Below, in pieces: positions 5,501-24,787 of a stretch of 34,064 bases of DNA. A program made the translations under genes and the position numbers. Origin of the DNA: Actinomycetota bacterium (lineage in GTDB: Bacteria > Actinomycetota > Actinomycetes > Propionibacteriales > Nocardioidaceae); assembly GCA_046732575.1 (NCBI GenBank), contig JBKPNJ010000085.1:1-34064 (forward strand). Direction: 5' to 3'. Below the pieces are notes generated by a model. It was not told where the DNA came from and made no database searches. It saw only the letters and a list, made by a program, of their open reading frames with translations. How positions within the stretch are numbered: the first letter of the stretch is position 1; every line of letters starts with the position of its first letter.

Positions 5501-5941
5501 ATGATGTACACCTACCGTCCGCTGGGCGCTCGCATCGCAGTGGCGATCGTCGCTCTCACCCTGGTGGCCGCGATCGCGGTGCTCTGGGTCGCGCTGCCCG
5601 GCGAGGTCCAGGACGACTTCACCTGGTTCCAGAGGGTCACCCTGCTGCTGCTGTTCGCGGTGACGCTCGCCGCCCTGTGGGGGCTGTTCCGGACCAGCGT
5701 GCGGACCGGTGAGGCCGGGCTGGAGATCGTGAACGTGTTCAAGGTGCGCACGTACCAGTGGCCACAGGTGGTCGCGATCTCGATGCGCCGCGGCGACCCG
5801 TGGGCTGTGCTGGACTTGGCCGACGGTACGAGCGTGGTGGCGATGGCCATCCAGAGCTCAGACGGCGCGCGGGCCGCTGCGGCCGTACGCGACATCTCCC
5901 AGCAGATCGATCAGCACTCACGGACCGAGCGCGACGACTGA
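5501..5941 (+). CDS. PH-domain (bacterial pleckstrin-like) membrane protein
   Basis: Two N-terminal transmembrane helices are followed by a short soluble domain (GLEIVNVFKVRTYQWPQVVAISMRRGDPWAVLDLADG), as in actinobacterial proteins commonly found next to hisG. Confidence 0.6.
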   Translation: MMYTYRPLGARIAVAIVALTLVAAIAVLWVALPGEVQDDFTWFQRVTLLLLFAVTLAALWGLFRTSVRTGEAGLEIVNVFKVRTYQWPQVVAISMRRGDPWAVLDLADGTSVVAMAIQSSDGARAAAAVRDISQQIDQHSRTERDD

Positions 5942-6031
5942 ACGCCACCTGCGTTCCCACGACTGTCGAGCCGCTCGTTGCCCGGTAGCGTGCACCGGAT
6001 GGCGAGCGGTCCAGGGCAGGCGGCAGGTCCC

Positions 6032-6559
6032 ATGCGCTCCACCACCTCAATAGTGCTGCGTAATGTGCGGCCCGCCGACCTCGACGCCTACGTTGAGATG
6101 CGTTGCGATCCCGTGATGATGGCCGACCTGTGAGGACCCCAGGCGCCGGCGGACATGGAGCGGAAGGTATTGCGAGACGCACGGGAGGCAGCGGCTGACC
6201 GCGAGTGGATCTTGATGATCGTGCCGGACGACGGAACCGAGTCGGTGGCCGGCACGGTGGTCATCTACCCCAATGCCGAGCACGGCGACCCGCTCTCGGA
6301 GATCGGCTGGATGGTCCTCCCGGCGTACCAGGGGCGCGGAATCGCCAAGTCGGCGGTGCGGATGGTCCTGAGTCGCGCTCGAGACGAGCACCGGTGGGGA
6401 CCTGTCCACGCCTTTCCCAGCATCACGAACAAGCCTTCCAACGGCATCTGCCGCTCAGTGGGCTTCACCTTGCTACGGCAGGAGCAGATTCCCTTCGCCG
6501 GACAGGTCTTCACGTCCAATCATTGGCGCATCGACCCCCAGGTCGACGCAGTGCTCTAG
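6032..6559 (+). pseudogene. GNAT-family N-acetyltransferase interrupted by one in-frame TGA (6131-6133)
   Basis: From ATG 6032 the frame reads MRSTTSIVLRNVRPADLDAYVEMRCDPVMMADL*GPQAPADMERKV...IGWMVLPAYQGRGIAKSAV. This is a complete GNAT (N-terminal strand plus the Q/RxxGxG/A acetyl-CoA motif) in a single frame. The stop sits where homologues usually have Gly (LGGP). Confidence 0.7.
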
Positions 6560-6570: not shown

Positions 6571-7974
6571 TCAGCCGCTCCGCTCGCGAGTGCTTCTCGC
6601 GGCAAGGGCCTCGATCGCGGCGGAGAAGCACTCCATCGGTGGCGCGACGAGCCCGGCTCCCACCTGGCCCGTCCCCGCGATCCTTCCGGCCATGCCCGTG
6701 TTGATCTGCGGCAGGATCCCGGTGCGGAGCACCCGGGTGACGTCGATCCCCGTCGGAGCGCCGCGGAACTCCAGGATCGGTATCGCATAGGCGGGGTTCT
6801 CCGTGACGGTGATCTCGTACATCCGCTCGGTCGTCGCGAGTGCGTCCGGCACGCTGCCCCCAACGAACCGGACGATCGCCGGGGCGGTCGCCATCGAGAA
6901 CCCGCCGAGCCCTGCGGTCTCGGTGATCGCCGAGTCCCCGATATCCGGGTTCGCGTCGTCGGGACCGTAGGAGCCGAGATAGAGGCCGTCGGCCACACGC
7001 GCCGGGCCGGTGAACCAGTCGCCGCCGGTGCTCGAGACCTGGATCCCGAAGTCGGTGCCGTTGCGGGCCATCGTCGTGACCACCGTGCACCCGGGGATCG
7101 CATCGGCCGCCACCGTCTGAAGCTTGCAGGCGGGCATGACCAGGTTGAGGAAGAAGTGGTCGTTCGCCGAGACGAACCGCACCGCCTCGGCAACCTCGGC
7201 GCTCGGCCGGCCGGAGTCGATCATCGCCGGGAGCAGCTCGCGCAGCAGCATCAATGTTCCGGCCCGGTTGCGGTTGTGCCCCTCGTCGCCCATCTGGACC
7301 ATCTGCGCGATCACGGCCTTGATGTCGACCGGCCCGGTGCGGTCCACCGCTCGCTTCAGGAGTGGACCGAGGACATCGCTCATCCAGTGCAGTCGCTGGA
7401 CCACCTGTTCGTCGTATGCGCCGTACCGAAGGACCTTGCCCAGGCCCTCGTTGAGAGAGCACCAGGACGAGTTGCCGTGGACGTCGTCGCGCAGCTCGCA
7501 CAACCACATCGAGGACGAGACGATCCCGGCCATCGGCCCCACCGCCCCACGGTGATGGCAGGGTTCCCAGCTCACATCCCCACGCCCGAGCGCTGCCTCG
7601 GCGGCCTCAGGGGAGTCGGCCAGACCCTCGAAGAGCATCGCGCCGATCAGGCCGCCGCGCAGCGGGCCCGAGGCGCGCTCCCAGGCGATCGGAGGGCCGG
7701 CGTGCAGGAAGTGCCCGGGCCCGAGTCCCAGCGCAGCGCTCGCCGGCTGTACGTCCACCAGCATCGCCTCGGCGGCCAGCATCCGGGCGCCGGCCTCGGC
7801 GTTGCCCGCTGCGCGGCGAGCGTCGCCCATCACCGACGCCAGCGCATCCTCGGTGCCCGGGACGGGAGGCCCCCAGTCCACTCTCGTCGTCTCGACCCCC
7901 TGGGTCTCCAGGGCGTCGGCGAACAGGGCCGCACCGGCCGTGATCACGCTCGGTGGCTCGGCCAGCAGGCTCAT
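6571..7974 (-). CDS. DUF1116 protein, YlbE (AllG)-like
   Basis: Long collinear similarity, from memory, to E. coli YlbE: HAGPP, CHH..AVGPM, NEGLGKVLRYGAY, DHFFLNL, MARNG..FGI, NPDIGDSAITET.G.GG, INTGMA...GQVGAG. Its ATG overlaps the stop of the upstream FdrA-like gene (ATGA). Confidence 0.85.
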   Translation of the reverse strand: MSLLAEPPSVITAGAALFADALETQGVETTRVDWGPPVPGTEDALASVMGDARRAAGNAEAGARMLAAEAMLVDVQPASAALGLGPGHFLHAGPPIAWERASGPLRGGLIGAMLFEGLADSPEAAEAALGRGDVSWEPCHHRGAVGPMAGIVSSSMWLCELRDDVHGNSSWCSLNEGLGKVLRYGAYDEQVVQRLHWMSDVLGPLLKRAVDRTGPVDIKAVIAQMVQMGDEGHNRNRAGTLMLLRELLPAMIDSGRPSAEVAEAVRFVSANDHFFLNLVMPACKLQTVAADAIPGCTVVTTMARNGTDFGIQVSSTGGDWFTGPARVADGLYLGSYGPDDANPDIGDSAITETAGLGGFSMATAPAIVRFVGGSVPDALATTERMYEITVTENPAYAIPILEFRGAPTGIDVTRVLRTGILPQINTGMAGRIAGTGQVGAGLVAPPMECFSAAIEALAARSTRERSG

Positions 7975-9455
7975 CTGTTCGCACCCCCGAGGAGTGAGAC
8001 GGCGGTGCGAGTTGCGGCGGCGTTGGACAGGAAGACGTGCGCCCCGGCCTCCCTGAGCCCCTCCGCCTGACGCGTGAGGCCCTGCGGGTCGTCCCGCGTG
8101 CCGATCAGCGAGACGAGCACCGGGACGTCCCGAACGGACCGGGCGGCCGAGACCGCGGGACCCAGCTGCGATGCCGGGTCCGGGTGTGCGCCGTGTCCGA
8201 GCACCACATCGAGCAGGAGCGCGCCGACCTCCGGGTCCCTCGCCTCCCGGTCCAGGCGTTCGACCCGCAGGGAGCCGTCGATCATCGGGTGCGGCCGTCC
8301 CACAGTGAGCGCATCGTCGCCGAAGTCGATCATCGTGTGCCCGCGCGAGCTCCTCGTCGGGTCCAACGCCCCCGACCCGGACAGTGGAATATTCGACGCG
8401 ATGTCGCCGAGTCTGGCGGAGGCGATGAGCATCGCCTCGTCACACAGCGTTCCGCCGGCGAACAGTCCACGCAGGTAGCGACCGCGTCCCTTGGCGGGGA
8501 CCTGCGGTGGGTGGTCGGCGGGTTCACACCAGCGGCCCCCCGCGGCCTCGGCGACGCTGCGCGCGGCCGCGGTGATGTCGGGCTGCCCCGGACCGAGGAG
8601 GGCGAAGACGACCGGCTTGCCCAGTCCTTCGGCGTGTGCGCGTACCAAGCCGGCTGTCTCTGCGGCGGGTGGCTTCGACACCACGGCGACCACCTCGACG
8701 GCCGGGTCGGCGGCGAGCAGGTCGAGCGCGCGAAGCGTCGACCGCCCGGCGACCTCAGCCGACAGGTCCCGCCCCCCGACGCCCAGGCAGTGCCTGACAC
8801 CGACATCCGCAGCGTCAAGCAGGGTCATCACATGCTGGGCACCGGTGCCGGAAGCGGCGACGATCCCAACGGGGCCCGGGCGGACGACGTTGGCGAAACC
8901 GAGCCCGACGCCGCACACAACCGCCGTACCGCAGTCGGGGCCCATCAGCAGCAGGCCGCGCTCCTGGGCGGTCACCTTGAGCGCGACCTCGTTCTCGAGG
9001 CTGACGTTGTCGCTGAACAGCATGACGTCGAGACCGGCGTCGAGGGCATCGGCCGCGTCGACCGCGGCGACCCGGCCCGGCGTGGACACCAACGCCAGCG
9101 TCGCGGCCACCCGCCTGGACGCCGCACCGATCGTGCGCGGCGCCGCCGCAGCCCCGAAGCCGCTCGGCGAGGGCTTGGTCCGCTCCGCGAGCGCCGAGTC
9201 CAACGACGACACCGCAGCGTCGAGCACCGTTCGGTCCTTCGCCCGGATCGCCACCACGAGCTGGTTCGGTGAGGGGTCCGATGGTGCCCGCAGACCCATC
9301 TCCTGCAGCATCTGGAGGTTCAGCGGCGTGGCCATCGCGACCAGCGCCGCACCGACTCCCGGCCGGGCCTGGATCGCCTGGCTGACCTGCATCAGGGTCA
9401 CCGAGTCGTGGTACGCCCCCGAGCGCACCTCGACATGGCTGACCGGGTCGGTCAT
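7971..9455 (-). CDS. FdrA (AllF)-like protein, succinyl-CoA-synthetase-alpha-type fold
   Basis: YHDSVTLMQVS, MLFSDNVSLENEV.LK, GLLLMGPDCGT, ASGTGAQ, LGVGGRDLS, VSKPPA and DALTVGRPHPMID are all shared with E. coli FdrA. The start ATG at 9455 (MTDPVSHVEV) overlaps the DUF2877 stop. The ORF-track extension to 9701 is rejected. Confidence 0.85.
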   Translation of the reverse strand: MTDPVSHVEVRSGAYHDSVTLMQVSQAIQARPGVGAALVAMATPLNLQMLQEMGLRAPSDPSPNQLVVAIRAKDRTVLDAAVSSLDSALAERTKPSPSGFGAAAAPRTIGAASRRVAATLALVSTPGRVAAVDAADALDAGLDVMLFSDNVSLENEVALKVTAQERGLLLMGPDCGTAVVCGVGLGFANVVRPGPVGIVAASGTGAQHVMTLLDAADVGVRHCLGVGGRDLSAEVAGRSTLRALDLLAADPAVEVVAVVSKPPAAETAGLVRAHAEGLGKPVVFALLGPGQPDITAAARSVAEAAGGRWCEPADHPPQVPAKGRGRYLRGLFAGGTLCDEAMLIASARLGDIASNIPLSGSGALDPTRSSRGHTMIDFGDDALTVGRPHPMIDGSLRVERLDREARDPEVGALLLDVVLGHGAHPDPASQLGPAVSAARSVRDVPVLVSLIGTRDDPQGLTRQAEGLREAGAHVFLSNAAATRTAVSLLGGANR

Positions 9456-10195
9456 GCAGCGGCCTCGTATCGACCCTCGGTAACCGTCAGCTGGAGCCCG
9501 AGCAGCATCGCCCGGCCGCTGGTCCCACCCACCGCCCGCAGCGAGGCGAGTGCTGCCGCCGGATCGGCGCCACGATCGACCACATCGATCAACGCGGCGA
9601 GCGCTCCGACGCAGTAGCCCTCGCACGCATGACGGAGCAGGGCCGCGGAGAGCGCTGACGTCCGCGACCAGAGCCCCGCCGGGTCGCACCAGTCCGGGCA
9701 CGGCTCCATACCGAACGCGTTGAGCAGCACCAGCGACCCCACGAGCACGTCGTCGCCGGCCGGGGTGAGGCCCGGGCCGCGGCCGATCAAGCGCTCGGGC
9801 CGTCCGAGGTCCACCTGATCCAGCTGCACATCATCGGAACGTACGCGGGGCAGCTGAGCGACCCCGGCAAGGAATCGGCTCCGGTTCGCGATGCGGGGGC
9901 GGGGGGGAGCCCACCAGCGGTGGGGGCGCACGGTCTGGTTGCCGGCGACCAGCTTGCCGTCGCCGATCACCGCGGAGCCGCGCTCGCCGAGGTCGAGCTC
10001 CCCGTCGTACACCACCGAGCAGGGCAGCACTATCGCGCGGCTGCGCTGCAACGACACCACCCGAAAGCCCGGCGCCGACGTGGTCAGGTGCCATGCCACC
10101 TGGGTGCCGGAGACGGCGCGCAGTGATGTGGGCGGACCGTCGAACAGCGGCGCCAGCACCGAGCTGGCGGCGGCTGCCATCGGAGGACCCGGCAC
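9452..10195 (-). CDS. DUF2877 protein, YlbF (AllH)-like
   Basis: GRGPGLTPAGDDVLVG motif and a helical C-terminus typical of DUF2877. It is the first gene of the minus-strand trio. I prefer GTG 10195 as the start, with GGAAGGAG 5 nt upstream; ATG 10180 or ATG 10279 are alternatives. Codons upstream of 10195 have poor GC3. Confidence 0.7.
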   Translation of the reverse strand: MPGPPMAAAASSVLAPLFDGPPTSLRAVSGTQVAWHLTTSAPGFRVVSLQRSRAIVLPCSVVYDGELDLGERGSAVIGDGKLVAGNQTVRPHRWWAPPRPRIANRSRFLAGVAQLPRVRSDDVQLDQVDLGRPERLIGRGPGLTPAGDDVLVGSLVLLNAFGMEPCPDWCDPAGLWSRTSALSAALLRHACEGYCVGALAALIDVVDRGADPAAALASLRAVGGTSGRAMLLGLQLTVTEGRYEAAA

Positions 10196-10373
10196 CCTCG
10201 CTCCTTCCCGTCCGCCCAGCGCGGGAAACTCACATGCTAGCGGTGCCGTCGCAGGCAATGAGGACGCGTTTTCGGGCATGGTTGCCTCGACGGGACCGGT
10301 CACACGGGCTGGCGGCATCGACGGCGCCGGCGGGGAGATGCGGTGCGCGGCACCGCTGAAGGGTGGGACGGAC

Positions 10374-11783
10374 ATGGCGCTTGGGTGGAAGCTCGTACAC
10401 GACGGAAGGACACCGCCGCCAGGTGAGGCGGTCGCACCCGACGAGCGGCTTTCGTGGGGCCGCACGGTCGGCCTCGGCGCCCAGCACGTGGTGGCCATGT
10501 TCGGCGCAACCTTCGTGTTCCCGCTGATCATGGGCCTCAACCCGCAGCTCGCGATCATGATGAGCGGCATCGCCACGATCTGCTTCCTGCTGATCGTGCA
10601 GGGAAAGGTGCCGAGCTACCTCGGCACCAGCGCCTCCTTCGTCGGCGGTGTGGCAGCCATCCGGGCGCAGGGAGGCGACTCCGCCGACGTCACCGGCGCG
10701 ATTCTGATCGCGGGCTTCGTCCTGCTGCTGGTCGGGCTGCTGATCCACTTCGCCGGTCCTCATCTGCTGCAGGTCGTCCTGCCGCCTGCTGTGACCGGAG
10801 CGGTGGTCATGCTCATCGGGTTCAACCTCGCGCCGGTCGTGGCGCACATCTACTGGCCGCAGGACCAGTGGATCGCCTTCGCCACCATGACGTTCGTCAT
10901 CCTGGTGGCGGTCGGCGTCCGTGGCTTCTTCGGCCGCATCGCGATCTTCCTCGGTCTCGTCTTCGGGTACCTCCTGTCCTGGTTCGCCGACGCGGCCTTC
11001 GGACCGATCACGTCGTTCGACGCCGCGGCCGGCAAGGTGACCACGCATGACCGTGTGAGCTGGACGAGCGTGAAGGCGGCGGACTGGATCGGGCTCCCGC
11101 CGCACACCGACGACGCCGCGGGCGTGGTCGGCTGGCACTGGCCAAGCTTCTCGGTGACGTTCACCCTGCTGGTGCTCCCGGCCGTCATCGCCCTGGTCGC
11201 GGAGAACACCGGGCACGTGAAGGCTGTCGGTGAGATGACGCGCCGCGACCTCGACCCGGTGATGGGGCGGGCCATCGCCGCCGACGGTTTCGGCACCATG
11301 CTCGCCTCCTCCGTGGGCGGCTCACCGACGACCACGTACGCCGAGAACATCGGGGTGATGGCCGCGACGCGTGTGTACTCGACCGCCGCGTACTACGTCG
11401 CCGCCGTGGTCGCGATCCTCTTCGGGCTGTCACCGAAGTTCGGCGCCCTGGTGGCCTCGACCCCGGGGGGCGTGCTCGGCGGCATCACCGTCGTCCTCTA
11501 CGGCATGATCGGCCTGCTGGGTGCAAAGATCTGGAAGGAGAACGCCGTCGACTTCGGCAATCCGATCAACCTGGTTCCGCTCGCCGCAGGGATCATCATC
11601 GCGATCGGCGACACCTCGCTGAAGGTCACCGACGACTTCATCCTCTCCGGTATCGCCCTCGGGACACTGGTCGTCGTGGTGTTCTACCACCTGGCCCGGG
11701 CTGTGGCGCCCGCCCATCTGCGTGAGGATGGGACGGTGCTCAGCGTGGGCACGCCGGGAGCACACCGCACCGACGACGTCTGA
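10374..11783 (+). CDS. NCS2/NAT-family nucleobase permease, uracil-type
   Basis: LGAQHVVAMFGATFVFP and the NAT signature TYAENIGVMAATR, with Glu (not Gln) at the first signature position as in UraA/PyrP. Polytopic. ATG 10374 is preceded by GAAGGGTGGGA. Confidence 0.85.
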   Translation: MALGWKLVHDGRTPPPGEAVAPDERLSWGRTVGLGAQHVVAMFGATFVFPLIMGLNPQLAIMMSGIATICFLLIVQGKVPSYLGTSASFVGGVAAIRAQGGDSADVTGAILIAGFVLLLVGLLIHFAGPHLLQVVLPPAVTGAVVMLIGFNLAPVVAHIYWPQDQWIAFATMTFVILVAVGVRGFFGRIAIFLGLVFGYLLSWFADAAFGPITSFDAAAGKVTTHDRVSWTSVKAADWIGLPPHTDDAAGVVGWHWPSFSVTFTLLVLPAVIALVAENTGHVKAVGEMTRRDLDPVMGRAIAADGFGTMLASSVGGSPTTTYAENIGVMAATRVYSTAAYYVAAVVAILFGLSPKFGALVASTPGGVLGGITVVLYGMIGLLGAKIWKENAVDFGNPINLVPLAAGIIIAIGDTSLKVTDDFILSGIALGTLVVVVFYHLARAVAPAHLREDGTVLSVGTPGAHRTDDV

Positions 11784-11802
11784 ACCGAGGCAGACCGCGA
11801 CC

Positions 11803-12681
11803 GTGAAGCCGTCCCCCTTCACCTATCACCGGCCCCACTCCGTCGACGAAGCGCTGACCGTGCTCGCGGAGGTGGCCGCGGACGGCAAGGTGCTCGCCGG
11901 CGGGCAGAGCCTCGTCCCGCTGCTGTCGATGCGGCTGGCGGCGCCCGCGCACCTTGTCGACATCAACCACATCCCCGGTCTTGACTCGATCGAGGTCGCA
12001 GACGGGCTGGTACGCATCGGGGCGGCCGTGCGTCACGCCGCGCTCGAGCACAGCGACGCTGCTGCAAGCGCGATCCCGCTTCTGCGGCAGACGGTCACCT
12101 GGATCGCGCATCCCACCATCCGTAACCGTGGCACGAGCCTGGGCAGCATCGTGCACGCCGACCCCGCCGGCGAGCTCCCGGCCGTGCTGGCCCTCCTCGA
12201 CGGCGAGGTGGAGGCAGCAAGCACGAGCGGTCGTCGGCGCATCGCCGCCGCAGAGTTCTTCCTCGGGCCGCTGGAGAGCGCGCTGGTCCCCGGTGAGCTG
12301 GCGGTCACCGCCACCTTCCGTGTGCCCGCGCCGGGCAGCGGCTCGGCGTGGACCGAGGTCGCGCGCCGGCACGGCGACTACGCTGTGTGCGGAGTGGGAG
12401 CCACCGTGACCGTTGACGACGACCGGATCGTCACCGCTGCCCGGGTCGCGCTGATCTCGGTCGGTCCCGTACCGGTCCTCGTCGACCTGGCCGAGCAGCT
12501 GACGGGGCAGGACGCCGACCACCTCGACGTCGGCGATGCAACCGCGATGGTGCTGAGCCGCATCGACGCGGAGGACGACATCCACGCCAGCGCGCGCTAC
12601 CGCCGACAGCTCGCCCAGGTGCTGACCGGCCGGGCCCTGCGCGCGGCCGTTCGCCACGGGACCGGCCTGGCGGCGGCGTGA
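11803..12681 (+). CDS. Molybdenum hydroxylase FAD-binding (medium, CoxM/XdhB-like) subunit
   Basis: VKPSPFTYHRPHSVDEAL...LAGGQSLVPLLSMRL is the canonical FAD-binding subunit N-terminus. GTG start at 11803. The stop overlaps the next start (GTGA at 12678-12681). Confidence 0.88.
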   Translation: MKPSPFTYHRPHSVDEALTVLAEVAADGKVLAGGQSLVPLLSMRLAAPAHLVDINHIPGLDSIEVADGLVRIGAAVRHAALEHSDAAASAIPLLRQTVTWIAHPTIRNRGTSLGSIVHADPAGELPAVLALLDGEVEAASTSGRRRIAAAEFFLGPLESALVPGELAVTATFRVPAPGSGSAWTEVARRHGDYAVCGVGATVTVDDDRIVTAARVALISVGPVPVLVDLAEQLTGQDADHLDVGDATAMVLSRIDAEDDIHASARYRRQLAQVLTGRALRAAVRHGTGLAAA

Positions 12682-13172
12682 GCGCGCCGCCGGTCGAGAG
12701 CGTCCACCACATCACCCTCCTCGTCAACGGGGTGCCGCTCGAGCTGACGGTGCCGGCACGCCGGCTGCTGTCCGACGCACTGCGTCACGACCTGCGGTTG
12801 ACCGGTACGCACGTGGGCTGTGAGCACGGCGTGTGCGGAGCTTGCACGGTGCTGGTCGACGGCCGGCCGACCCGGTCCTGCCTGGTCTTCGCGGTGAGTG
12901 TGGAAGGCTCCTCGATCACCACCGTGGAAGGGTGCTGCGAGACCGACGGCTCGATGGGCCGCGTGCAGCGGGCATTCCAGCGCTGCCATGCACTGCAGTG
13001 CGGGTTCTGCACGCCGGGGTTCGTCACCACGATCACCGCGTTCCTGCGCGACAACCCCGACCCGAGCGACGCCGATGCCCGCGAGGCGATCGCCGGCAAC
13101 CTCTGCCGCTGCACGGGATACCAGAACATCGTCGCGGCCGTGCTCAGCGCCGCCCGGGACGGCTCGCCGTGA
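12678..13172 (+). CDS. Molybdenum hydroxylase 2x[2Fe-2S] (small, CoxS/XdhC-iron-sulfur-like) subunit
   Basis: GCEHGVCGACTV (plant-type cluster) and QCGFCTPG...NLCRCTGYQNI (second cluster). Confidence 0.92.
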   Translation: MSAPPVESVHHITLLVNGVPLELTVPARRLLSDALRHDLRLTGTHVGCEHGVCGACTVLVDGRPTRSCLVFAVSVEGSSITTVEGCCETDGSMGRVQRAFQRCHALQCGFCTPGFVTTITAFLRDNPDPSDADAREAIAGNLCRCTGYQNIVAAVLSAARDGSP

Positions 13173-15616
13173 CCACCAGGATGCTGGGCCAACCGGTGCA
13201 GCGCGCGGAGGACCCACGGCTGCTCACCGGCAACGGCCGCTACCTCGACGACCTCGGCCAGACCGCGTATGCCGCTGCGTTCCTCCGCTCTCCACACGCC
13301 CACGCCCGGATCGCGTCCGTCGACGTCAGCGACGCGCTCGAGGTCGAGGGGCTGATCGCGATCTACACCCACGAGGACCTCGAGGGCCGGGCGGCCGAGC
13401 CGCTGCCGCTGCTGATCCCGCACCCGTCGCTGTCGCACGGCCGCACCCCGTACGCCCTTGCGCGCGACGAGGTCAACCACGTCGGTGAGGCGATAGCGAT
13501 GGTGGTGGCCAGCGACCGGTACGTCGCCGAGGACGTTCTGGAGCGGATCACTGTCGAGTACGACTTCCTGACCCCTGTCGTCGGCCTGGAGTCGTCTCGC
13601 GCCGCCGAGAGCCTGGTGCACGACGACGTGCCCGGCAACGTCGCCGCACACCTGCTCCAGGAGACCGGGAACGCCGAGGCGGCCATCGACGCCGCGCCGC
13701 ACCAGCTGTCGCTGGACCTCTCGATCGAGCGCAGTGCATCCACGCCGATGGAGGGCAAGGGCGTCCTCGCCAGGTGGGACCCCGACGACCGGTCGCTTCT
13801 CGTGCACACCTCCACCCAGACCTCCACCAGCGTCCGTCAGGCCATCGCGGCCAAGCTCGAGCTGCCGGTCGACCGGGTGGAGGTGGTGACGCCGGACGTG
13901 GGAGGCGGTTTCGGCGTCAAGATCGTGCATCCGTGGCCGGAGGAGATCATGGTCCCCTGGGCCGCGATCAGGCTCGGGCATCCGGTCAAGTGGGTCGAGG
14001 ACCGCCGTGAGCACTTCATCTCCAGCGCGCACGAACGGGCCCAGCTGCACCAGGTCCGAGTCGGCTTCGACGACAACGGTCGGCTGCAGGGGCTGTCGGT
14101 GCGGTTCTGGCACGACAACGGGGCCTACACGCCGTACGGCCTGATCGTGCCGATCATCACCGCCACGCAGCTCCTGGGACCATACAAGCCGGGGCCGTAC
14201 CGGGTGGAGTTCTGGAGCATCTACACCAACACGGTGATCGTGACGCCGTACCGTGGTGCCGGCCGGCCACAGGGATGCTTCGTGATGGAGCGAACGCTCG
14301 ACGCCATCGCCGACGAGCTGGGTATCGACCGGGCGGTGGTCCGCGCCAACAACTTCATCCAGCCCGGGGAGATGCCGTACGACCACGGCCTGCTGTTCCA
14401 GGACGGTCGTCCGCTGATCTACGACTCGGGCGACTTCCCGGCCACGCTGGCCAAGCTCCGCGCTCTGGTCGGCTGGGACGACTTCGAGGTCTACCGGGAC
14501 CATGCCCGGGCAGAGGGCCGGACGGTCGGCATCGGGATGGGCTGCTACGTCGAGGGCACCGGCGTCGGACCGTACGAAGGTGGACACCTGCGGATCGAGA
14601 CCGACGGCACGGTTGTGGTGTCCACCGGACTGACCAGCCAGGGGCAGGGCCATCAGACGATGCTCGCCCAGCTTGTGTCCGACGAGCTCGGGGTGCCGTT
14701 CGACCGGATCCGGGTGACCACCGGGGACACCCGCAGGTTCAAGTACGCGGTCGGAACCTTCGCCTCCCGTACCGCGGTGATGAGCGGGAGCGCGGTCGCC
14801 TTGACCGCCCGCAAGGTGCGCGCCAAGGCACTGCGGATCGCCGCGCAGGCACTCGAGGCCGACCCCGACGATCTGGAGATCGTCGCCGGGATGGTCCGGG
14901 TCAGGGGAGCCCCGGCGGCGGAGATCGACCTCGGCGCGGTCGCCGTCTTGTCGAACCCGCTGCGCTACGCCTTCGACGAGGCGGCGTCGCGGGCGACGCA
15001 GTTCGTGACGTCGGTCGATCCGGACATGCCACCGGTCGCGTTGGGCGACGAGCCCGGGCTGGAGGGCACCGCGTACTACTCGCCGCCGCGCTCGACGTTC
15101 GCCAACGGCATGCACGCCGTCGTGGTGGAGACCGACCCGGAGACCGCGGAGATCACGGTGCTGCGGTACTGCGTCGTGCACGACTGCGGCACCGTCATCA
15201 ACCCGATGATCCTCGAGGGCCAGATCCACGGTGGCGTGGCGCAGGGGGTGGGCGGCGCACTCTACGAGCGGATGGTCTACGACTCGTCGGGCCAGCTGCT
15301 CAATGCCAGCTTCATGGACTTCCTGATGCCGTACGTCACCGAGGTGCCGCCGATCGAGATCGACCACCTCGAGACGCCCTCGCCGTTGAACCCGCTCGGC
15401 GTCAAGGGGGCGGGGGAGGCGGGTGTGATCCCCGGCTCGGCAGCTGTCGCGGCGGCGATCGAGGACGCGGAGGGGTTCCGGATCACCGCGATGCCGATCT
15501 CGCCCAGCGAGCTGTTCGACCTTCGCCGCGGCGCCCTCGAGGGCCGGGTTCCGTGGCTGCGCGGGAGGCGTCCGGCGGACGTCGCGGACGGTTCATCCGC
15601 GGCAGGCGGCTCGTGA
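13169..15616 (+). CDS. Molybdenum hydroxylase molybdopterin-binding (large, form-II CoxL-like) subunit
   Basis: N-terminus MLGQPVQRAEDPRLLTGNGRYLDD, DVGGGFGVK, and the active-site loop TPYRGAGRPQG (YRGAGR at 14249-14266). The start is GTG 13169 (GTGA overlap) or ATG 13181. Confidence 0.9.
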   Translation: MTTRMLGQPVQRAEDPRLLTGNGRYLDDLGQTAYAAAFLRSPHAHARIASVDVSDALEVEGLIAIYTHEDLEGRAAEPLPLLIPHPSLSHGRTPYALARDEVNHVGEAIAMVVASDRYVAEDVLERITVEYDFLTPVVGLESSRAAESLVHDDVPGNVAAHLLQETGNAEAAIDAAPHQLSLDLSIERSASTPMEGKGVLARWDPDDRSLLVHTSTQTSTSVRQAIAAKLELPVDRVEVVTPDVGGGFGVKIVHPWPEEIMVPWAAIRLGHPVKWVEDRREHFISSAHERAQLHQVRVGFDDNGRLQGLSVRFWHDNGAYTPYGLIVPIITATQLLGPYKPGPYRVEFWSIYTNTVIVTPYRGAGRPQGCFVMERTLDAIADELGIDRAVVRANNFIQPGEMPYDHGLLFQDGRPLIYDSGDFPATLAKLRALVGWDDFEVYRDHARAEGRTVGIGMGCYVEGTGVGPYEGGHLRIETDGTVVVSTGLTSQGQGHQTMLAQLVSDELGVPFDRIRVTTGDTRRFKYAVGTFASRTAVMSGSAVALTARKVRAKALRIAAQALEADPDDLEIVAGMVRVRGAPAAEIDLGAVAVLSNPLRYAFDEAASRATQFVTSVDPDMPPVALGDEPGLEGTAYYSPPRSTFANGMHAVVVETDPETAEITVLRYCVVHDCGTVINPMILEGQIHGGVAQGVGGALYERMVYDSSGQLLNASFMDFLMPYVTEVPPIEIDHLETPSPLNPLGVKGAGEAGVIPGSAAVAAAIEDAEGFRITAMPISPSELFDLRRGALEGRVPWLRGRRPADVADGSSAAGGS

Positions 15617-15841
15617 CCGGTCGTCCACCCGATCGGCGCGGGTCGCTCCCGATGGACGGCTACGGAAGCGTCACTGCGCAGGCCGTCCGCGGGCTGGCGG
15701 CTCACGGGGAGTCGACACTGAGCCCGGCGACGCCTCCGGGCGCCGGGCCCGGCGCCGATCCCGGGCCCCGCACGCTGCCTGAGACTCCGAGCCGGGGAAC
15801 CGGCGGGTCGTCTCGCCCGCGGAATGCCACACTTGACCACC

Positions 15842-16483
15842 ATGAAGGTCTCCGGCACCGCAACCCTGAACGGATCCCGCGAGAACGTGTGGCGGGCGCT
15901 CAACGACCCCGAGGTGCTGGTGCGGACCATCCCCGGATGTCAGCAACTGGAGACCATCGACCAGGACGCCTACCGGATGACGCTCACGGCCGGTGTCGCC
16001 TCCATCAAGGGCGTCTACCAGGGCGAGGTGCGCCTGGAGGACCACGACGAACCCGGCTCCTTCACGCTCCGGGCGGCGGGATCCGGCGCGCCGGGAACCG
16101 TCAGCGCCGACGTCAAGGTCAGGCTGGACCAGGGACCGACGGGCACGACCCTGCTGAGCTATGACGCCGATGCGATCGTCGGGGGGATGATCGGCGGCGT
16201 CGGTCAGCGGATGCTGACCGGGGTGGCGAAGAAGACTGCCGGTGAGTTCTTCGGCAACGTCGACGATGTGCTCACCGGTGTCGCCCGGTCGCCAGCCCAC
16301 GGCGAGACCGGCACTCCCGCGGCGCGCGAGCGGGCGACGGATCGGGTCTTCCGCTCACCGGCGGCACAGCCGGCCGGTTCGGTCACGGGCGCTGACTTCA
16401 GGGCCGGCGTCGTCGCCGGCGCGCTGGCTGCGCTCCTCGGAGCGGTCGTCGGAGGATGGCTGTCGGGGCGCCGCCGCACCTGA
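15842..16483 (+). CDS. CoxG-like SRPBCC protein with a C-terminal transmembrane tail
   Basis: MKVSGTATLNGSRENVWRALNDPEVL...IKGVYQGEV...GGVGQRML is typical CoxG. An Ala/Pro/Gly linker follows, then GVVAGALAALLGAVVGGWL-SGRRRT. The alternative start is ATG 15824. Confidence 0.8.
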   Translation: MKVSGTATLNGSRENVWRALNDPEVLVRTIPGCQQLETIDQDAYRMTLTAGVASIKGVYQGEVRLEDHDEPGSFTLRAAGSGAPGTVSADVKVRLDQGPTGTTLLSYDADAIVGGMIGGVGQRMLTGVAKKTAGEFFGNVDDVLTGVARSPAHGETGTPAARERATDRVFRSPAAQPAGSVTGADFRAGVVAGALAALLGAVVGGWLSGRRRT

Positions 16484-16549
16484 TCGGGCGAACCGGACGG
16501 AGATCTGCCAGACCAGGGATCCAGACAACGTGAGACACGAGGAACCGAG

Positions 16550-17458
16550 ATGCGAGCATTCACCGCCGCAGCAGTGCAGGTCCGGCCGCTGCACGCACCG
16601 CTGACCAGGGACAGCATCGAGGCGAACGTCGGACACTGCGTGGACTACGTGCACCGCTGCGTCACCGACACCGCCGCCGAGCTGGTGGTGCTGCCGGAGA
16701 CCTGCACGACGGGGTTCACCCCCGGCCTCGGTCCGGAAGAGCTGTTCGAGGTCATCGGGCCGTTCGTCCAAGGGGCCACAGAGCCTCTGCACGCAGCCGC
16801 AGCCGACCTCGGGATACACCTGGTCTACGGAGCGTACGAGCGCGGTCCGGAGCCCGGTGTCGTGTACAACGCCGCGGTGCTCGTCGGCCCGGACGGCGGC
16901 ACGCTGGGCGTCTACCGCAAGACGCACCCGTTCTGCACCGAGACCCGGGCACGCGGGGGGTGGGTGACTCCGGGGGACGACGTATGCGTCGTGCAGACCG
17001 ACCTGGGCCGGATCGGGCTGATCATCTGCTTCGACGGTGACTTTCCCGAGCTGTCGAGGATCAACGCGCTGGAGGGCGCCGACGTCATCTGCCGGCCGTC
17101 GGCGCTGCTGCGCAGCGCCGACATCTGGGAGCTGACCAACCGGGCGCGTGCCTACGACAATCATGTCTTCCTGATCGGCGCCAACGCGGTGGGCGTCGAC
17201 CCGGCCGGCGTGCTCTACTTCGGCAACTCGATGATCGTCACGCCGATAGCGGAGGTCATCGCCCGTGGCTCCACGCACGAGTCATGGGTGACCGCGGTGC
17301 TCGACCCCGACCGTGCCCTGTCGTCGCTGACCCCGGGCTCCAGCGTGCCGCAGGGCTTCGACCACCTGGCGGACCGCAATCTCGACCTGCTGGCGAAGTA
17401 CGCCGACAGGCTGGCCGGTCCGGGCGCGACGTCGTTCCCGTTCGGCAGCGAGGCGTGA
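16550..17458 (+). CDS. Carbon-nitrogen hydrolase (nitrilase superfamily) amidase/carbamoylase
   Basis: Catalytic triad contexts VVLPE, VYRKTHPF and GLIICFDGDFPE. This superfamily includes N-carbamoyl-D-amino-acid hydrolase and beta-ureidopropionase. Confidence 0.85.
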   Translation: MRAFTAAAVQVRPLHAPLTRDSIEANVGHCVDYVHRCVTDTAAELVVLPETCTTGFTPGLGPEELFEVIGPFVQGATEPLHAAAADLGIHLVYGAYERGPEPGVVYNAAVLVGPDGGTLGVYRKTHPFCTETRARGGWVTPGDDVCVVQTDLGRIGLIICFDGDFPELSRINALEGADVICRPSALLRSADIWELTNRARAYDNHVFLIGANAVGVDPAGVLYFGNSMIVTPIAEVIARGSTHESWVTAVLDPDRALSSLTPGSSVPQGFDHLADRNLDLLAKYADRLAGPGATSFPFGSEA

Positions 17459-19578
17459 CACGCCGGATCCGCATCGGCGTCGACACCGGGGGCACGTTCA
17501 CCGACGTGGTCGCCGTCGACGAGTCGACCGGACGGCTCGAAGCCACCAAGACACCGTCGACCCCTGCCGATCCGGCACAGGGCTTCATGACCGGGGTGCA
17601 CAAGGTCCTCGCCGCTCTGGATCTCGCCGGAGACTCGATCAGCGCGGTGAGCCACGGCACCACGGTCGCCACCAACAAGCTGCTCGAAGGCAAGGTGGAG
17701 AACCTGGGTTTCATCACCACCGAGGGCTACGGCCACATCCTGGAGATCGCCCGGCAGTCGGTTCCAGACGGCTACGGCAACTCGTACTTCTGGGTCAAGC
17801 CGCCGCGGATAGTGCCGGCGGACCGGGTCAAGACCGTCCCGGGACGGCTGCTGGTCGATGGCAGCGAGCTGCGTCCGTTCGACGAGGACGCGGCGATCGA
17901 GGTCGCCCGCTGGTTCGCCGACCGGGGTACCACGGCGATCGGCGTCTGCTTCCTGCACTCCTACGCCAACCCGGCCCACGAGCTGGCGATGCTGGACGTG
18001 CTGACCCGAGAGCACCCACAGGCCGTCGTCTCGATCTCCTCACACGTGCTGCGCGAGTACCGCGAGTACGAGCGCAGCGTCACCACGCTGGTGGACGCAG
18101 CGGTGAAGCCCGACATCCGGCGCTACGTGGCGAACATCACCGCACACCTGAGCGCATTCACCGGCATTGGCACCTCCGCCGGCTCAGCCCCGACCCGCCC
18201 CGTCCCGTTCTACGTGATGAAGTCGAATGGCGGCGTGCTCTCGGCGGAGGAGGTCGTGAACCAGCCGATCACGACAGTGCTGTCGGGGCCCGCCGCCGGA
18301 GCGCTCGGTGCCTCCGTCGTCGCCGAACGGGCTGGCCTGCGGGAGGTGGTCACCTGTGACGGAGGTGGCACGTCGACCGACGTCACAGTCGTCCTGGATG
18401 GGCAACCGGCGCTGACGACCGAGGGCTCGGTCGGCGCGTATCCATCCAAGATCCCGATGATCGACGTGGTGACGGTCGGCGCCGGCGGCGGGTCGATCGC
18501 TTGGGTGAGCCCGGAGGGCACGCTCAAGGTGGGGCCGCGCTCGGCCGGCGCCGACCCCGGCCCGATGTGCTACGGCCGCGGCGGCTCCGAGCCCACGGTC
18601 ACCGACGCCCACCTGCTGCTCGGCCGGATCCCACCACGCCTGCTGGGCGGGGAAGTGCCACTGGCTGTCGAGGAGGCACGCCCTGGAATGGATGCGCTGG
18701 CCGGCAAGCTGGCCATGACCCCGGAGTCGTGTGCGGCCGGCATCCTGGAGATCTCGGCGTGGAACCAGGCCAACGCGATTCGCCAGGTCACCGTCAAGCG
18801 AGGATTGGACATCCGAGACTTCCACCTGGTGACGTTCGGCGGCTCCGGCTCGCTGCTGGCCTGCCGGCTGGTCGACGTCCTGGAGCTCGGGGGGGTGCTC
18901 GTTCCGCTCGACCCCGGCAGTCTGTCGGCGTACGGCCTGCTGACGGTCGACGTCCGAAACGACTACGTCCAGACCGCGGTCGAGCGGCAGTCGAGGCTGT
19001 CGGTCACTGCGGTCCGCTCGATCTTCGACGACCTGCGGTCGCAGGCCGACGCGGCGCTGGCTCGCGAGGGCTTCGGCGCGCAGGCGCGGCGGTTCGTGCG
19101 GACCGCCGATCTGCGCTACTACGGACAGGCGTTCGAGGTACGGGTCGAAGTTCCCGACGGGCCGGTGACCCCCGACCTGCTCGCGGTGGTTGCCGCCGCG
19201 TTCCACGAGGAGCACAGCGCGCTGTACGGATACGACTTCCGCGACGACCGCCGACAGGAGGTCGAGTGGGTCAACCTACGGGTCACCGGTGTGGGCCCGA
19301 TCCGCAAGCCCGGAACAAGGAGCGTCGAGGCGGGCCGCGGGGCGGACTCGGCGCGCACCGGAACGCGCCCGGTGCTCTTCGACGAATGGATGGACAGCGC
19401 GGTCTACGACCGGCTCGGGCTCGGCGCGGGCGACGTTGTCGACGGCCCGGCGGTGCTCGAGGAGTTCAGCTCCACCGTCCCGGTGCATCCCGGGTTCCGA
19501 GCCACAGTCGACGGTGCGGGAAACCTCCTCATCGCGCGGGCGGCGGCAGAGGCGACCAGCGGTCGGACCGGCTCGTGA
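17455..19578 (+). CDS. hyuA: Hydantoinase/oxoprolinase family, A subunit (ATP-binding)
   Basis: IGVDTGGTFTDVVAVD N-terminus, followed by Hydantoinase_A-type regions (GGGTSTDV, VGAGGGSIAW). GTG 17455 overlaps the CN-hydrolase stop (GTGA). Confidence 0.88.
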   Translation: MTRRIRIGVDTGGTFTDVVAVDESTGRLEATKTPSTPADPAQGFMTGVHKVLAALDLAGDSISAVSHGTTVATNKLLEGKVENLGFITTEGYGHILEIARQSVPDGYGNSYFWVKPPRIVPADRVKTVPGRLLVDGSELRPFDEDAAIEVARWFADRGTTAIGVCFLHSYANPAHELAMLDVLTREHPQAVVSISSHVLREYREYERSVTTLVDAAVKPDIRRYVANITAHLSAFTGIGTSAGSAPTRPVPFYVMKSNGGVLSAEEVVNQPITTVLSGPAAGALGASVVAERAGLREVVTCDGGGTSTDVTVVLDGQPALTTEGSVGAYPSKIPMIDVVTVGAGGGSIAWVSPEGTLKVGPRSAGADPGPMCYGRGGSEPTVTDAHLLLGRIPPRLLGGEVPLAVEEARPGMDALAGKLAMTPESCAAGILEISAWNQANAIRQVTVKRGLDIRDFHLVTFGGSGSLLACRLVDVLELGGVLVPLDPGSLSAYGLLTVDVRNDYVQTAVERQSRLSVTAVRSIFDDLRSQADAALAREGFGAQARRFVRTADLRYYGQAFEVRVEVPDGPVTPDLLAVVAAAFHEEHSALYGYDFRDDRRQEVEWVNLRVTGVGPIRKPGTRSVEAGRGADSARTGTRPVLFDEWMDSAVYDRLGLGAGDVVDGPAVLEEFSSTVPVHPGFRATVDGAGNLLIARAAAEATSGRTGS

Positions 19579-21458: not shown

Positions 21459-22054
21459 GCCGCGCCGAGGAGACGACCGGCGAGCCGCTGGCCCGTCCGT
21501 CCGCCGAGCAGCTCCAGGGGTCCCCCAGCGAGCTGGTGGCCGCGCTGTCGGCCCGCTGGGGCACCGACCGCGTCGCCGAGTACTGCGCCGGGCTGCTGCA
21601 GGGTGACGACCCGCTCGGCTGTCCCGAAGCACTGCTGTTCATCGGCGGGCGTGGGGCGGCCGGTCTCACCCGGCTGGGCGACGGGCGAGCGGCGCTGCGT
21701 TACTGGCCGAGGGTCTGGGCGGCACGGGCGTTGCGGTATGCGTGGTCACAGACCGCGGTCCCCGCGGTGGTGGCCGCGCTGGACGACGAGTCCTGGAGAG
21801 TGGCCGAGCAGGCGATGAAGGTGATGGCGAGGTACGAGGTGAGCGAGGGCGTGGAGGCAGCGCTGCGCTGGGTCGACGACGAGCTGCCGAGGGTGCGAGC
21901 GACGACACTGCGGCTGCTCGGAGCGGTTGGTGAGTCCGAGCACGTCCGGTACGTCCTGGATGCCCGGCACGACCCGCACCCGGGGGTGCGCAGCTCGGCC
22001 TCGAACGCGCTGTCGCGGCTCGAACGCCGGCTCGACAGGGAGCTGCCGCGATGA
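21455..22054 (+). CDS. HEAT-repeat (PBS-lyase-type) protein of unknown function
   Basis: Repeated helical units each end in an Asp-x-x-x-x-Val-Arg pattern: DDESWRVAEQAMKVM, DDELPRVRATTLRLLG, DPHPGVRSSASNALSRL. The start is GTG 21455 (GTGA overlap with hyuB) or ATG 21443. Its stop overlaps the carbamate kinase ATG. Confidence 0.6.
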   Translation: MSRAEETTGEPLARPSAEQLQGSPSELVAALSARWGTDRVAEYCAGLLQGDDPLGCPEALLFIGGRGAAGLTRLGDGRAALRYWPRVWAARALRYAWSQTAVPAVVAALDDESWRVAEQAMKVMARYEVSEGVEAALRWVDDELPRVRATTLRLLGAVGESEHVRYVLDARHDPHPGVRSSASNALSRLERRLDRELPR

Positions 22055-23013
22055 AGGTCCTCATCGCACTCGGCGGCAACGCGATGACGGGACCGGACGG
22101 CGACGCCCGGCCGCAGGCGCAGATCGCGGCGGCGGAGCGGGCGATGGCCAGGGTCGCGGAGCTGGTCGCCGCCGGGGCGGATGTGGTGATCACCCACGGC
22201 AACGGACCGCAGGTCGGGAACCTGCTGGTGAAGAACGAGATCGCTGCCGGAGTCGTCCCGCCGGTGCCCCTTGACTGGTGCGGGGCGCAGACCCAGGCAA
22301 CGCTCGGATTCATCCTCCTCGACGCACTGGACCAGGCTCTCCGCCGGGTGGGCGTGCATCGGCAGTCCGCGGCGGTGGTGACGCGCACCCTGGTGGATCG
22401 CGACGACCCCGGGTTCTCGAATCCCAGCAAGCCGATCGGACGCTTCCTTCCCGCGCCGGAGGCAGCGACCCTCATCGAGCATGGGCAGACGTGGCAGGAC
22501 CGCGGCGCCCGGGGATGGCGCCGGGTGGTGCCGTCCCCCGAGCCGTTGGAGATCCTCGACGCGGATGCAGTGCTCCGGCTGGTGGAGGCCGGGTTCGTGG
22601 TCGTCGCCAACGGTGGCGGGGGGATCCCCGTCGTACGCGAACCGGACGGCCGGCTCCGTGGCGTCGAGGCGGTGATCGACAAGGATCTCGGCGCGGCGCT
22701 GCTGGCCCGGACCGTGCGGGCGGACGTCCTGGTCATCGCGACCGACGTGCAGAACGCCGTGGTCGGGTTCGGCACGCCGCAGGCGCGTCCCATCGGGCCC
22801 GTTGAGGTCACTGCGCTACGCCGACTCGCCGACGAAGGACACTTCGCCAGCGGCAGCATGGGACCGAAGGTGGAAGCGGTCTGCAGGTTCGTCGAGGACA
22901 GCATGGGGTACGCCGTGATCACCAGCCTCGACCTCATCGTCGACGCGGCGGCCGGTCGGTCCGGCACCGTCGTGCGACCGGACGCACCAGGAGAGCAGGG
23001 TTCAGATGCCTGA
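22051..23013 (+). CDS. arcC: Carbamate kinase
   Basis: [12 protein letters not shown]...[14 protein letters not shown]...GGGGIPV...VIDKDL...ATDV...GSMGPKVEA are canonical carbamate kinase motifs. Confidence 0.9.
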
Positions 23014-24771: not shown

Positions 24772-24787
24772 GCGGTCACGTCGGCGG

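Follow-up and report, generated by a model that had tools for sequence, protein, structure and literature searches.

The window analysed here is a 34,064-nucleotide stretch of DNA from an Actinomycetota bacterium of the family Nocardioidaceae (assembly GCA_046732575.1, contig JBKPNJ010000085.1, positions 1 to 34,064), with a G+C content of about 70%. Genes were called from third-position GC, an open reading frame (ORF) listing and matches to Pfam and NCBIfam. The window carries a 17.6 kb island (6571-24139) built of two arms. The left arm consists of three minus-strand genes whose products are related to Escherichia coli AllH, AllF and AllG (hereafter called the trio), and the right arm is a divergent operon of 12 plus-strand genes, mostly joined to their neighbours by 4-bp overlaps, that includes a carbamate kinase gene and a barbiturase gene. 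Housekeeping genes flank the island on both sides (ribD-ribE-pnuC-ribBA-ribH-hisE-hisG-bPH-GNAT and infC-rplT-spoU-pheST-argC). From this gene content we propose that the trio serves the oxidative pyrimidine pathway as a carbamoyltransferase, and that its substrate is probably ureidomalonate.

Results

The first gene of the trio, allH-like (9452-10195, minus strand, 247 amino acids), starts with the GTG at 10195, ahead of which lies the Shine-Dalgarno sequence GGAAGGAG. Its product matches the AllH (DUF2877) family (PF11392, E 1.8e-21, 77 bits against a cutoff of 25) and is 36% identical to E. coli AllH (YlbF) over the C-terminal 104 residues only. The second gene, allF-like (7971-9455, minus strand, 494 amino acids), encodes a protein of the FdrA family with a succinyl-CoA-synthetase-alpha-like fold. 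This protein passes the Pfam Ligase_CoA model, matches the FdrA structure PDB 3DMY (E 3.6e-70), and is 38% identical to E. coli AllF over nearly the full length and 39% identical to YahF. Against the NCBIfam FdrA model NF004760 it scores 404.8 bits (E 5.5e-121), slightly below the 433-bit cutoff, so that its sequence marks it as a clear FdrA homologue though one outside the curated subfamily threshold. We considered the phospho-histidine mechanism of the succinyl-CoA synthetase (SCS) alpha subunit for this protein; the catalytic histidine aligns to a residue that is not histidine, and we draw no mechanistic claim. The third gene, allG-like (6571-7974, minus strand, 467 amino acids), encodes a DUF1116 protein that matches PF06545 AllG (E 2e-93, 312 bits, cutoff 27) and PDB 3CLQ (E 8e-107). 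It is 46% identical to E. coli AllG over residues 55-458 and 45% identical to YahG over residues 2-454, and because the latter alignment begins at residue 2, the ATG at 7974 is supported as its start.

The three genes are coupled by ATGA stop/start overlaps, at 9455-9452 between allH-like and allF-like and at 7974-7971 between allF-like and allG-like. A first-pass annotation, made from the sequence alone, had described three coupled genes of the FdrA, DUF1116 and DUF2877 families; the ORF ends and the sequence bear out the coupling, and the profile searches bear out the families, with the AllG and AllH models passed and the FdrA model narrowly missed. It had also called the gene order foreign to E. 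coli. The order in the window is indeed H-F-G, but so is that of E. coli yahE-yahF-yahG. Relatives of the trio keep the H-F-G order, and the trio proteins are 64-89% identical among actinobacterial loci.

The DUF1116/AllG family as a whole comprises 629 clusters at 50% identity (E <= 1e-30). Many representatives are about 1000 amino acids long with the AllG match in the C-terminal half (P0362, P0366 and P0375 among them) and resemble natural AllF-AllG fusions, a judgement made from their length and the position of the match only. A distant member (39% identity) on the Rhodococcus opacus plasmid pR1CP1 (L095, 9890-11179) has no FdrA or DUF2877 partner and is surrounded by SDR oxidoreductases and glutamine-synthetase-like genes, which indicates that the DUF1116 domain works outside the three-subunit system too.

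At the far end of the divergent operon, the carbamate kinase gene (22051-23013, plus strand; NF009007, 301 bits, above the 266-bit cutoff) overlaps a gene of the AtzD/TrzD ring-opening amidohydrolase family (23006-24139, plus strand; PF09663, E 6e-143) by 8 bases. The kinase is 42% identical to E. coli AllK and 41% identical to YahI. Its start lies 11.9 kb from that of the allH-like gene, in the divergent operon rather than in the operon of the trio, so that the earlier placing of a cognate carbamate kinase about 12 kb away, beside a barbiturase-family gene, proved accurate. On sequence similarity the AtzD-family neighbour is a true orthologue of barbiturase (EC 3.5.2.1): it matches the Rhodococcus erythropolis barbiturase structure PDB 5HWE with 657 bits (E 5e-197) against 326 bits for the best cyanuric acid hydrolase, and ureidomalonate would therefore be made here.

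The first plus-strand gene of the operon encodes an NCS2 nucleobase permease of RutG/uracil-permease-like type (10374-11783; PF00860, E 6.6e-75), whose best models both score below cutoff (TIGR03616 RutG, 348 bits against 758; uracil permease, 249 against 477). It is followed by the three subunits of a molybdenum hydroxylase: an FAD subunit (11803-12681, alternative start 11722; PF00941, PF03450), a [2Fe-2S] small subunit whose gene overlaps the FAD gene by 4 bp (12678-13172; PF01799, PF00111) and a molybdopterin large subunit (13169-15616; PF01315, PF02738, PF20256). The context points to a uracil/thymine dehydrogenase (EC 1.17.99.4), converting uracil to barbiturate, as a candidate role for this enzyme. 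By their predicted functions, the uracil-type permease, the molybdenum hydroxylase and the barbiturase make up an oxidative pyrimidine pathway that leads from uracil through barbiturate to ureidomalonate.

Between the hydroxylase and the kinase lie genes for a CoxG-family protein (15824-16483; PF06240, E 7e-26), a CN-hydrolase of the nitrilase superfamily that we propose as a malonamate amidase (16550-17458; PF00795, E 3e-46), hydantoinase/oxoprolinase A (HydA, 17455-19578; PF05378, PF01968, PF19278), hydantoinase/oxoprolinase B (HydB, 19575-21458; PF02538, E 7e-136) and a small HEAT-repeat protein of about 200 amino acids (21455-22054; PF13646, E 1e-11). The HEAT gene overlaps both of its neighbours, hydB and the kinase gene, by 4 bp and is thus translationally coupled to them. 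Curated NCBIfam models would misname two proteins of the island: the barbiturase orthologue passes the equivalog model NF052395 'cyanuric acid amidohydrolase' (471 bits, cutoff 360), and the molybdopterin subunit passes NF040766 'aerobic carbon-monoxide dehydrogenase large subunit' ('CODH group 5'; 1502 bits, cutoff 950).

How widely these genes travel together was surveyed from both ends of the island. We scanned for barbiturase in one genome per species and took the best 80 loci, each with 10 kb of flank on either side, in which neighbours were identified by local tblastn. All 80 belong to Actinomycetota, at 79-85% identity with Rhodococcus included; the barbiturase of the window is 81% identical to its Rhodococcus qingshengii homologue. 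A carbamate kinase gene lies directly upstream of the barbiturase gene, in the same orientation, in 69 loci, which implies that a source of carbamoyl phosphate is needed. HydB is found in 45 of the 80 and HydA in 34, and the molybdenum hydroxylase is seen in loci whose flank reaches far enough. Recurrent neighbours also include a family III CoA-transferase (CoA_transf_3; 37/80), a carboxyltransferase of acetyl-CoA-carboxylase type (Carboxyl_trans; 16/80), an amidase-signature enzyme (15/80), XdhC, a PucR regulator and sometimes a cytosine-deaminase-like protein; recognisable homologues of the HEAT protein are present in only four loci. The CoA-transferase and carboxyltransferase point to malonate, a C3 compound, as the carbon product. 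Among the conserved neighbours in barbiturase loci that lack a nearby trio, no alternative source of carbamoyl phosphate of the ornithine transcarbamylase (OTCase) or YgeW type was found.

The survey anchored on the trio or on the molybdenum-hydroxylase subunit comprised 13 loci: the window, AllG homologues from Nocardioides, homologues of the molybdenum-hydroxylase subunit found with a Catenulispora query, and AllG homologues found with a Carbonactinospora query. These loci span at least 10 genera (the window, Nocardioides, Catenulispora, Jiangella, Carbonactinospora, Haloactinopolyspora, Streptomyces, Actinomadura, Vallicoccus and Actinorugispora, together with metagenome-assembled genomes, MAGs). 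In all 13, the AllF and AllG genes adjoin the permease and/or the molybdenum-hydroxylase operon, mostly in divergent orientation and mostly with a PucR-family regulator between. Complete islands, with the kinase-barbiturase pair visible, are present in Catenulispora (L084), a MAG (L089) and Actinomadura graeca (L091). In A. graeca, AllH-AllF-AllG is followed by the genes for permease, CN-hydrolase, CoA-transferase, carboxyltransferase, kinase and barbiturase, among which no molybdenum-hydroxylase or hydantoinase genes intervene; in this compact order the trio is linked to the pathway's back end too, and not to its front end only.

Metagenomes extend the picture. An AllG-anchored sample gave 80 loci, of which 26 were informative in that at least 5.5 kb upstream of AllG was available. 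PucR, permease or molybdenum-hydroxylase genes lie near the trio in 25 of these 26. Two further gene orders appeared: AllF-AllG-HydA-HydB-CoA-transferase-kinase-barbiturase on one strand (L143), and the trio with an amidase, convergent with barbiturase-kinase (L156, L157 and L159). The distance from the trio to HydAB, kinase and barbiturase in these orders is 0.2-7.6 kb. In each lineage examined, and across several gene orders, the trio is thus linked to genes of the divergent operon, and we count the persistence of this linkage through the rearrangements in L091, L143 and L156/157/159 in favour of a shared pathway.

Allantoin genes are missing from these surroundings. Searches by tblastn with E. 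coli AllA, AllB, AllC, AllD, AllE, Gcl, Hyi, GlxR, GlxK, AllR, AllS and AllW found nothing in the window, in agreement with the first-pass annotation. Searches of the same kind found allantoin catabolic genes absent from 12 further genome loci (L082-L093), from the 80 barbiturase loci and from the 80 AllG-anchored metagenome loci; the single weak match in the last set was to an AllR/IclR-type regulator (L130). The earlier view that the context argues for a substrate other than allantoin-derived oxalurate is strengthened by this combination of conserved linkage (13 of 13 and 25 of 26 loci) and absent allantoin genes.

The amidohydrolases of the clusters fall into a pattern. In kinase-containing clusters, an amidase and a CN-hydrolase are mutually exclusive at one position, between CoxG and HydA (examples of the amidase in place of the CN-hydrolase are L082, 246-1679, and L088, 13059-14336). 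The swap looks like non-orthologous displacement of one function. Both superfamilies include enzymes that act on dicarboxylate monoamides, omega-amidase Nit2 and malonamidase E2 respectively. The nearest structures, which are generic and do not discriminate malonamidase from ureidomalonase, are Nit-type amidases and Nit2 for the CN-hydrolase and GatA-like proteins for the amidase, which matches malonamidase E2 at only 80 bits.

The picture changes where no kinase gene adjoins the barbiturase gene. There, an amidase-signature gene directly follows the barbiturase gene (Haloechinothrix, L062; Rhodococcoides fascians, L076; Rhodococcus, L053). The amidases of the kinase-containing clusters are 65-83% identical among themselves; to these, the Rhodococcus amidases are about 40% identical and that of Haloechinothrix about 50%. 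No trio is present in the two kinase-less loci where 21 kb is visible (Haloechinothrix and R. fascians), and in Haloechinothrix the barbiturase gene is divergent from the permease gene, in the place that the trio occupies in the window. Lacking kinase and trio and carrying an amidase after barbiturase, such loci fit the urea-forming ureidomalonase route of Rhodococcus. The overall pattern agrees with two variants of the last steps, one hydrolytic (Rhodococcus; urea and malonate) and one phosphorolytic (kinase and trio), and is drawn from few loci in which both ends are visible: three with kinase and trio in the survey of 13 loci and four from metagenomes, against two with neither.

The trio and the permease operon share a 178-bp divergent intergenic region (10196-10373), which contains several copies, direct and inverted, of the repeats CGGTGCCGTCG / CGACGGnnCCG; from their sequence and arrangement these are candidate operators. 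The closest relative (L083, 89% identity) shows partial conservation of the region, in which no sigma-70 consensus promoter was found. A PucR gene stands at the trio/permease junction in most other genera, but there is none in the window, L082, L083 or L089. Scans for Rfam families, transfer RNA (tRNA) genes, sigma-70 promoters and terminators gave nothing in or around the trio. Over the whole window, no Rfam family reached its gathering score, neither infC-rpmI-rplT nor the rib genes showed a known leader upstream, and the tRNA scan found no genes.

The flanks of the island recur as well. In the window they are hisG-bPH on one side (5501-6559) and infC-rplT on the other (24124-27564). Carbonactinospora (L086), as well as Nocardioides mesophilus and Vallicoccus soli (L082 and L092), has bPH_6/HisG genes adjoining the trio, and IF3 is found downstream of barbiturase in 12 barbiturase loci. 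The same flanks in other genera suggest an old, vertically inherited location rather than a recent transfer. In two relatives, several toxin-antitoxin pairs of PIN/PhdYeFM and RHH type are inserted in the pyrimidine island between coxG, the CN-hydrolase gene and hydA (Jiangella gansuensis, L085, 13083-15938; L087, 2499-3106).

Discussion

The biochemistry of oxidative pyrimidine breakdown goes back to the 1950s. To our knowledge, barbiturase is the only one of its enzymes whose gene has been cloned; the dehydrogenase, like the step that follows ureidomalonate, is an orphan activity, and we know of no gene for ureidomalonase (EC 3.5.1.95). For each step of the pathway, candidate genes are provided by the island, which is conserved in many actinobacterial orders.

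We consider it rather probable that the trio is a three-subunit carbamoyltransferase of the AllFGH/YahEFG family which has been recruited to this pathway and phosphorolyses ureidomalonate to carbamoyl phosphate and malonamate, the substrate being suggested by gene context. The RutG-like permease would import uracil and probably thymine, and the Mo/FAD/[2Fe-2S] dehydrogenase would hydroxylate them to barbiturate. Ring opening by barbiturase would then give ureidomalonate (N-malonylurea, H2N-CO-NH-CO-CH2-COO-), from which the AllH/AllF/AllG-like complex would move the carbamoyl group onto phosphate, yielding carbamoyl phosphate and malonamate. Carbamate kinase would convert carbamoyl phosphate and ADP to ATP, NH3 and CO2, and the CN-hydrolase (in other genomes the amidase-signature enzyme) would hydrolyse malonamate to malonate and NH3. 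In other genomes, the family III CoA-transferase and the carboxyltransferase-like protein could carry malonate on to malonyl-CoA and acetyl-CoA. By this prediction uracil would yield malonate and CO2, two NH3 and one ATP, and urea would not be formed. Ureidomalonate is oxalurate (H2N-CO-NH-CO-COO-) lengthened by one CH2, and the proposed step is accordingly the homologue of the phosphorolysis of oxalurate, which gives carbamoyl phosphate and oxamate. Of the four substrates that the first-pass annotation had listed for assay, N-malonylurea is the one that the context singles out.

Several observations weigh against this proposal. Not one of the 80 barbiturase-anchored loci has the trio within 10 kb of its barbiturase gene. 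The genes lying closest to the trio are those for the permease, PucR and molybdenum hydroxylase and not that for the kinase, whereas E. coli allFGH and allK form one operon. The two Carbonactinospora loci (L086 and L088) have the trio with front-end genes and no kinase or barbiturase within 10 kb, and in two metagenome loci (L155 and L169) the trio stands alone; beside it are no alternative catabolic genes, only unrelated or defence-type ones. The Catenulispora locus (L084) has no recognisable AllH gene or domain. Moreover, the hydantoinase pair and the HEAT protein are without a role in the scheme, and the island CN-hydrolase or amidase could itself split ureidomalonate to urea and malonate in the classical way, which would leave the trio without a known substrate. 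Substrate specificity is not readable from sequence, and the ureidomalonate activity of the trio is a prediction.

The AllF homologue of Catenulispora sp. EB89 (L084, 2600-4702) is itself unusual, being 700 amino acids long, of which about 200 form an insertion; its AllG counterpart has 551 amino acids. We considered an AllH-AllF fusion and rejected it on finding no AllH similarity and no AllH Pfam match.

The idle hydantoinase pair leads to the alternative that survives best, namely that the trio acts on another pyrimidine-derived ureide or is a broad N-acylurea phosphorylase. Such a ureide might be methyl-ureidomalonate, formed from thymine or 5-methylbarbiturate, or the HydA/HydB product of a cyclic ureide that barbiturase refuses; HydAB as a ring-opener for 5-methylbarbiturate or another cyclic ureide is a possibility. 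The frequency of HydB and HydA in the barbiturase loci speaks for this alternative, as does L143, where HydA-HydB lies directly downstream of AllF-AllG on the same strand. However, trio and hydantoinase also come apart: the A. graeca cluster, in which the trio is joined by CN-hydrolase, kinase and barbiturase, contains no HydAB, the trio of Carbonactinospora (L086) is likewise unaccompanied by HydAB, and the kinase-less Haloechinothrix locus has HydAB and lacks the trio. We regard a different ureide as unlikely.

Slightly less likely still is that the trio is a true oxamate carbamoyltransferase. Its oxalurate would then come from purine or allantoin breakdown encoded elsewhere, or from over-oxidation of barbiturate (through dialurate, alloxan or parabanate), under PucR-type co-regulation. 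The identity of 46% (AllG) and 38% (AllF) to the characterised E. coli enzyme favours this, the Pfam domain names carry that activity, and a regulator of the PucR (purine catabolism) family stands between trio and permease in most genera. Nevertheless, no allantoinase, allantoate amidohydrolase, ureidoglycolate dehydrogenase or glyoxylate carboligase is present in the window or in any of the three sets of loci searched, and the clusters hold genes for handling malonate, not oxamate or oxalate. Furthermore, the proteins of the window stand at least as near to the uncharacterised YahEFG as to AllFGH. By its domains the trio belongs to the AllFGH family, and it lacks the allantoin-gene context that defines oxamate carbamoyltransferase (EC 2.1.3.5); it is therefore better not given that name.

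We think it improbable that the CN-hydrolase or amidase takes on ureidomalonate and that the trio and kinase serve carbamate or carbamoyl capture for biosynthesis, or an unrelated ureide. An amidohydrolase is always present in the island, and a ureidomalonase forming urea and malonate is the route reported for Rhodococcus (Soong, Ogawa and Shimizu, 2001-2002). This arrangement would provide no carbamoyl phosphate for the kinase, whose gene adjoins that of barbiturase in 69 of the 80 loci, and no urease or urea carboxylase genes are seen in the islands. The distance between the Rhodococcus amidases (about 40% identity) and the kinase-cluster amidases (65-83% among themselves) also suggests different jobs. 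Finally, the older annotation of the FdrA-like protein as an acyl-CoA synthetase, here activating malonate with DUF1116 and DUF2877 as accessories, would suit its succinyl-CoA synthetase alpha fold, its Ligase_CoA domain and the lack of a CoA-transferase for malonate in the window, but is very improbable given that biochemistry shows the E. coli homologue to be a carbamoyltransferase (PMC11326118), that the catalytic phospho-histidine of SCS-alpha is not conserved, that no SCS-beta/ATP-grasp partner is present and that the L091 and L156 clusters hold trio and CoA-transferase together.

If phosphorolysis of ureidomalonate by the trio is correct, this actinobacterial clade has a previously undescribed, urea-free and ATP-yielding branch of the oxidative pyrimidine pathway. 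The predicted last step keeps the ureido group as carbamoyl phosphate, so that one ATP is gained per uracil and both nitrogens are released as ammonia with no need for urease. Genes would also be assigned to the orphan steps of uracil dehydrogenase, ureidomalonate fate and malonamate amidase, and the AllFGH enzyme type would have at least one further physiological role. The prediction, which follows from gene context, is specific, concerns a cluster widespread in Actinomycetota and is apparently unpublished: in the papers that could be searched, a scope outside which subscription-only articles lie, we found none linking the AllFGH/DUF1116 family to barbiturase or uracil oxidation. It matters for Pfam and NCBI names, into which the 'oxalurate' annotation is now spreading, and for the function of E. 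coli yahEFG-yahI, whose substrate it may help to guess.

Comparison with known systems

E. coli AllF-AllG-AllH is an oxamic transcarbamylase that converts oxalurate and phosphate to carbamoyl phosphate and oxamate (Kim & Kim 2024, PMC11326118), as the first-pass annotation had rightly stated. Its genes lie in an operon with that of the catabolic carbamate kinase AllK, next to allECD, and the same authors give a urea-free, ATP-yielding logic for the system in urease-negative enterobacteria (PMC11326118). The window has the same three protein families, the same tight coupling and a linked carbamate kinase. As proposed here from the genes, it would also share the chemistry, in which an N-acylurea and phosphate give carbamoyl phosphate and a primary amide. 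The differences begin with gene order, which is H-F-G in the window and F-G-H-K in the all operon, and with the kinase, which in the window is 12 kb away in a divergent operon, overlapping barbiturase, whereas AllK is encoded within the allFGH operon. The AllG-like protein has an N-terminal extension of about 55 residues relative to E. coli AllG (YlbE), and the AllF-like protein lacks the C-terminal tail of about 60 residues of E. coli AllF. Unlike the all region, the window has no allantoin genes, and its context suggests ureidomalonate rather than oxalurate; the amide product would probably be hydrolysed further, where E. coli excretes oxamate.

A second E. coli K-12 cluster is in some respects closer. 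It comprises yahD (ankyrin), yahE (DUF2877), yahF (FdrA-like), yahG (DUF1116), yahH, yahI (carbamate-kinase-like) and yahJ (amidohydrolase) (L094, 5281-12508), and its yahE-yahF-yahG genes have the order of the window. The AllG-like protein scores 398 bits against YahG and 349 against AllG, the AllF-like protein 298 against YahF and 265 against AllF, and the carbamate kinase 196 against YahI and 163 against AllK. Only the AllH-like protein matches its All counterpart better (51.6 bits, against 38.9 for YahE). YahG aligns with the AllG-like protein over its full length, including the 55-residue N-terminal extension. The companions of the cluster are also reminiscent of the window, with an amidohydrolase and a repeat protein (ankyrin YahD, HEAT in the window), although the resemblance between the repeat proteins may be coincidence. 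By contrast, the yah kinase is in the same operon, no molybdenum hydroxylase, barbiturase or permease lies beside it, and identities are only 39-45%. In percent identity the proteins of the window are about equally distant from the All and Yah sets, which, given the higher identity within Actinomycetota, indicates that the actinobacterial proteins form a third lineage. The literature searched as above assigns no function to E. coli yahEFG.

The family also occurs beside genes for other ureides. In nitrifier MAGs (Thaumarchaeota and Nitrospira), allFGHK lies beside biuret and triuret hydrolase genes, with biuH, trtA and atzF as neighbours; the authors still assume oxalurate as the substrate (2025, PMC12625717). 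Like the window, these loci place the genes outside an allantoin context; unlike it, they have no barbiturase or molybdenum hydroxylase. We tentatively suggest, with less confidence than we attach to the trio itself, that AllFGH/YahEFG could be an N-acylurea phosphorylase family with substrate-specific clades, for oxalurate in the enterobacterial all system, ureidomalonate in Actinomycetota, and others in E. coli yahEFG and the biuret/triuret-linked nitrifiers.

The closest pathway is that of Rhodococcus erythropolis, which Soong, Ogawa and Shimizu are said to have described as a uracil/thymine dehydrogenase, a barbiturase and a ureidomalonase, the last reportedly giving urea and malonate. The window shares with it a barbiturase orthologue, a three-subunit Mo/FAD/FeS hydroxylase and a uracil-type permease, and loci related to the window have malonate-handling genes. 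Rhodococcus loci, however, have neither the adjacent carbamate kinase nor the trio, and carry an amidase-signature gene after barbiturase. The two systems would thus part at the last step, which is hydrolytic in Rhodococcus, ending in urea and malonate, and is proposed to be phosphorolytic, ATP-yielding and urea-free in the window.

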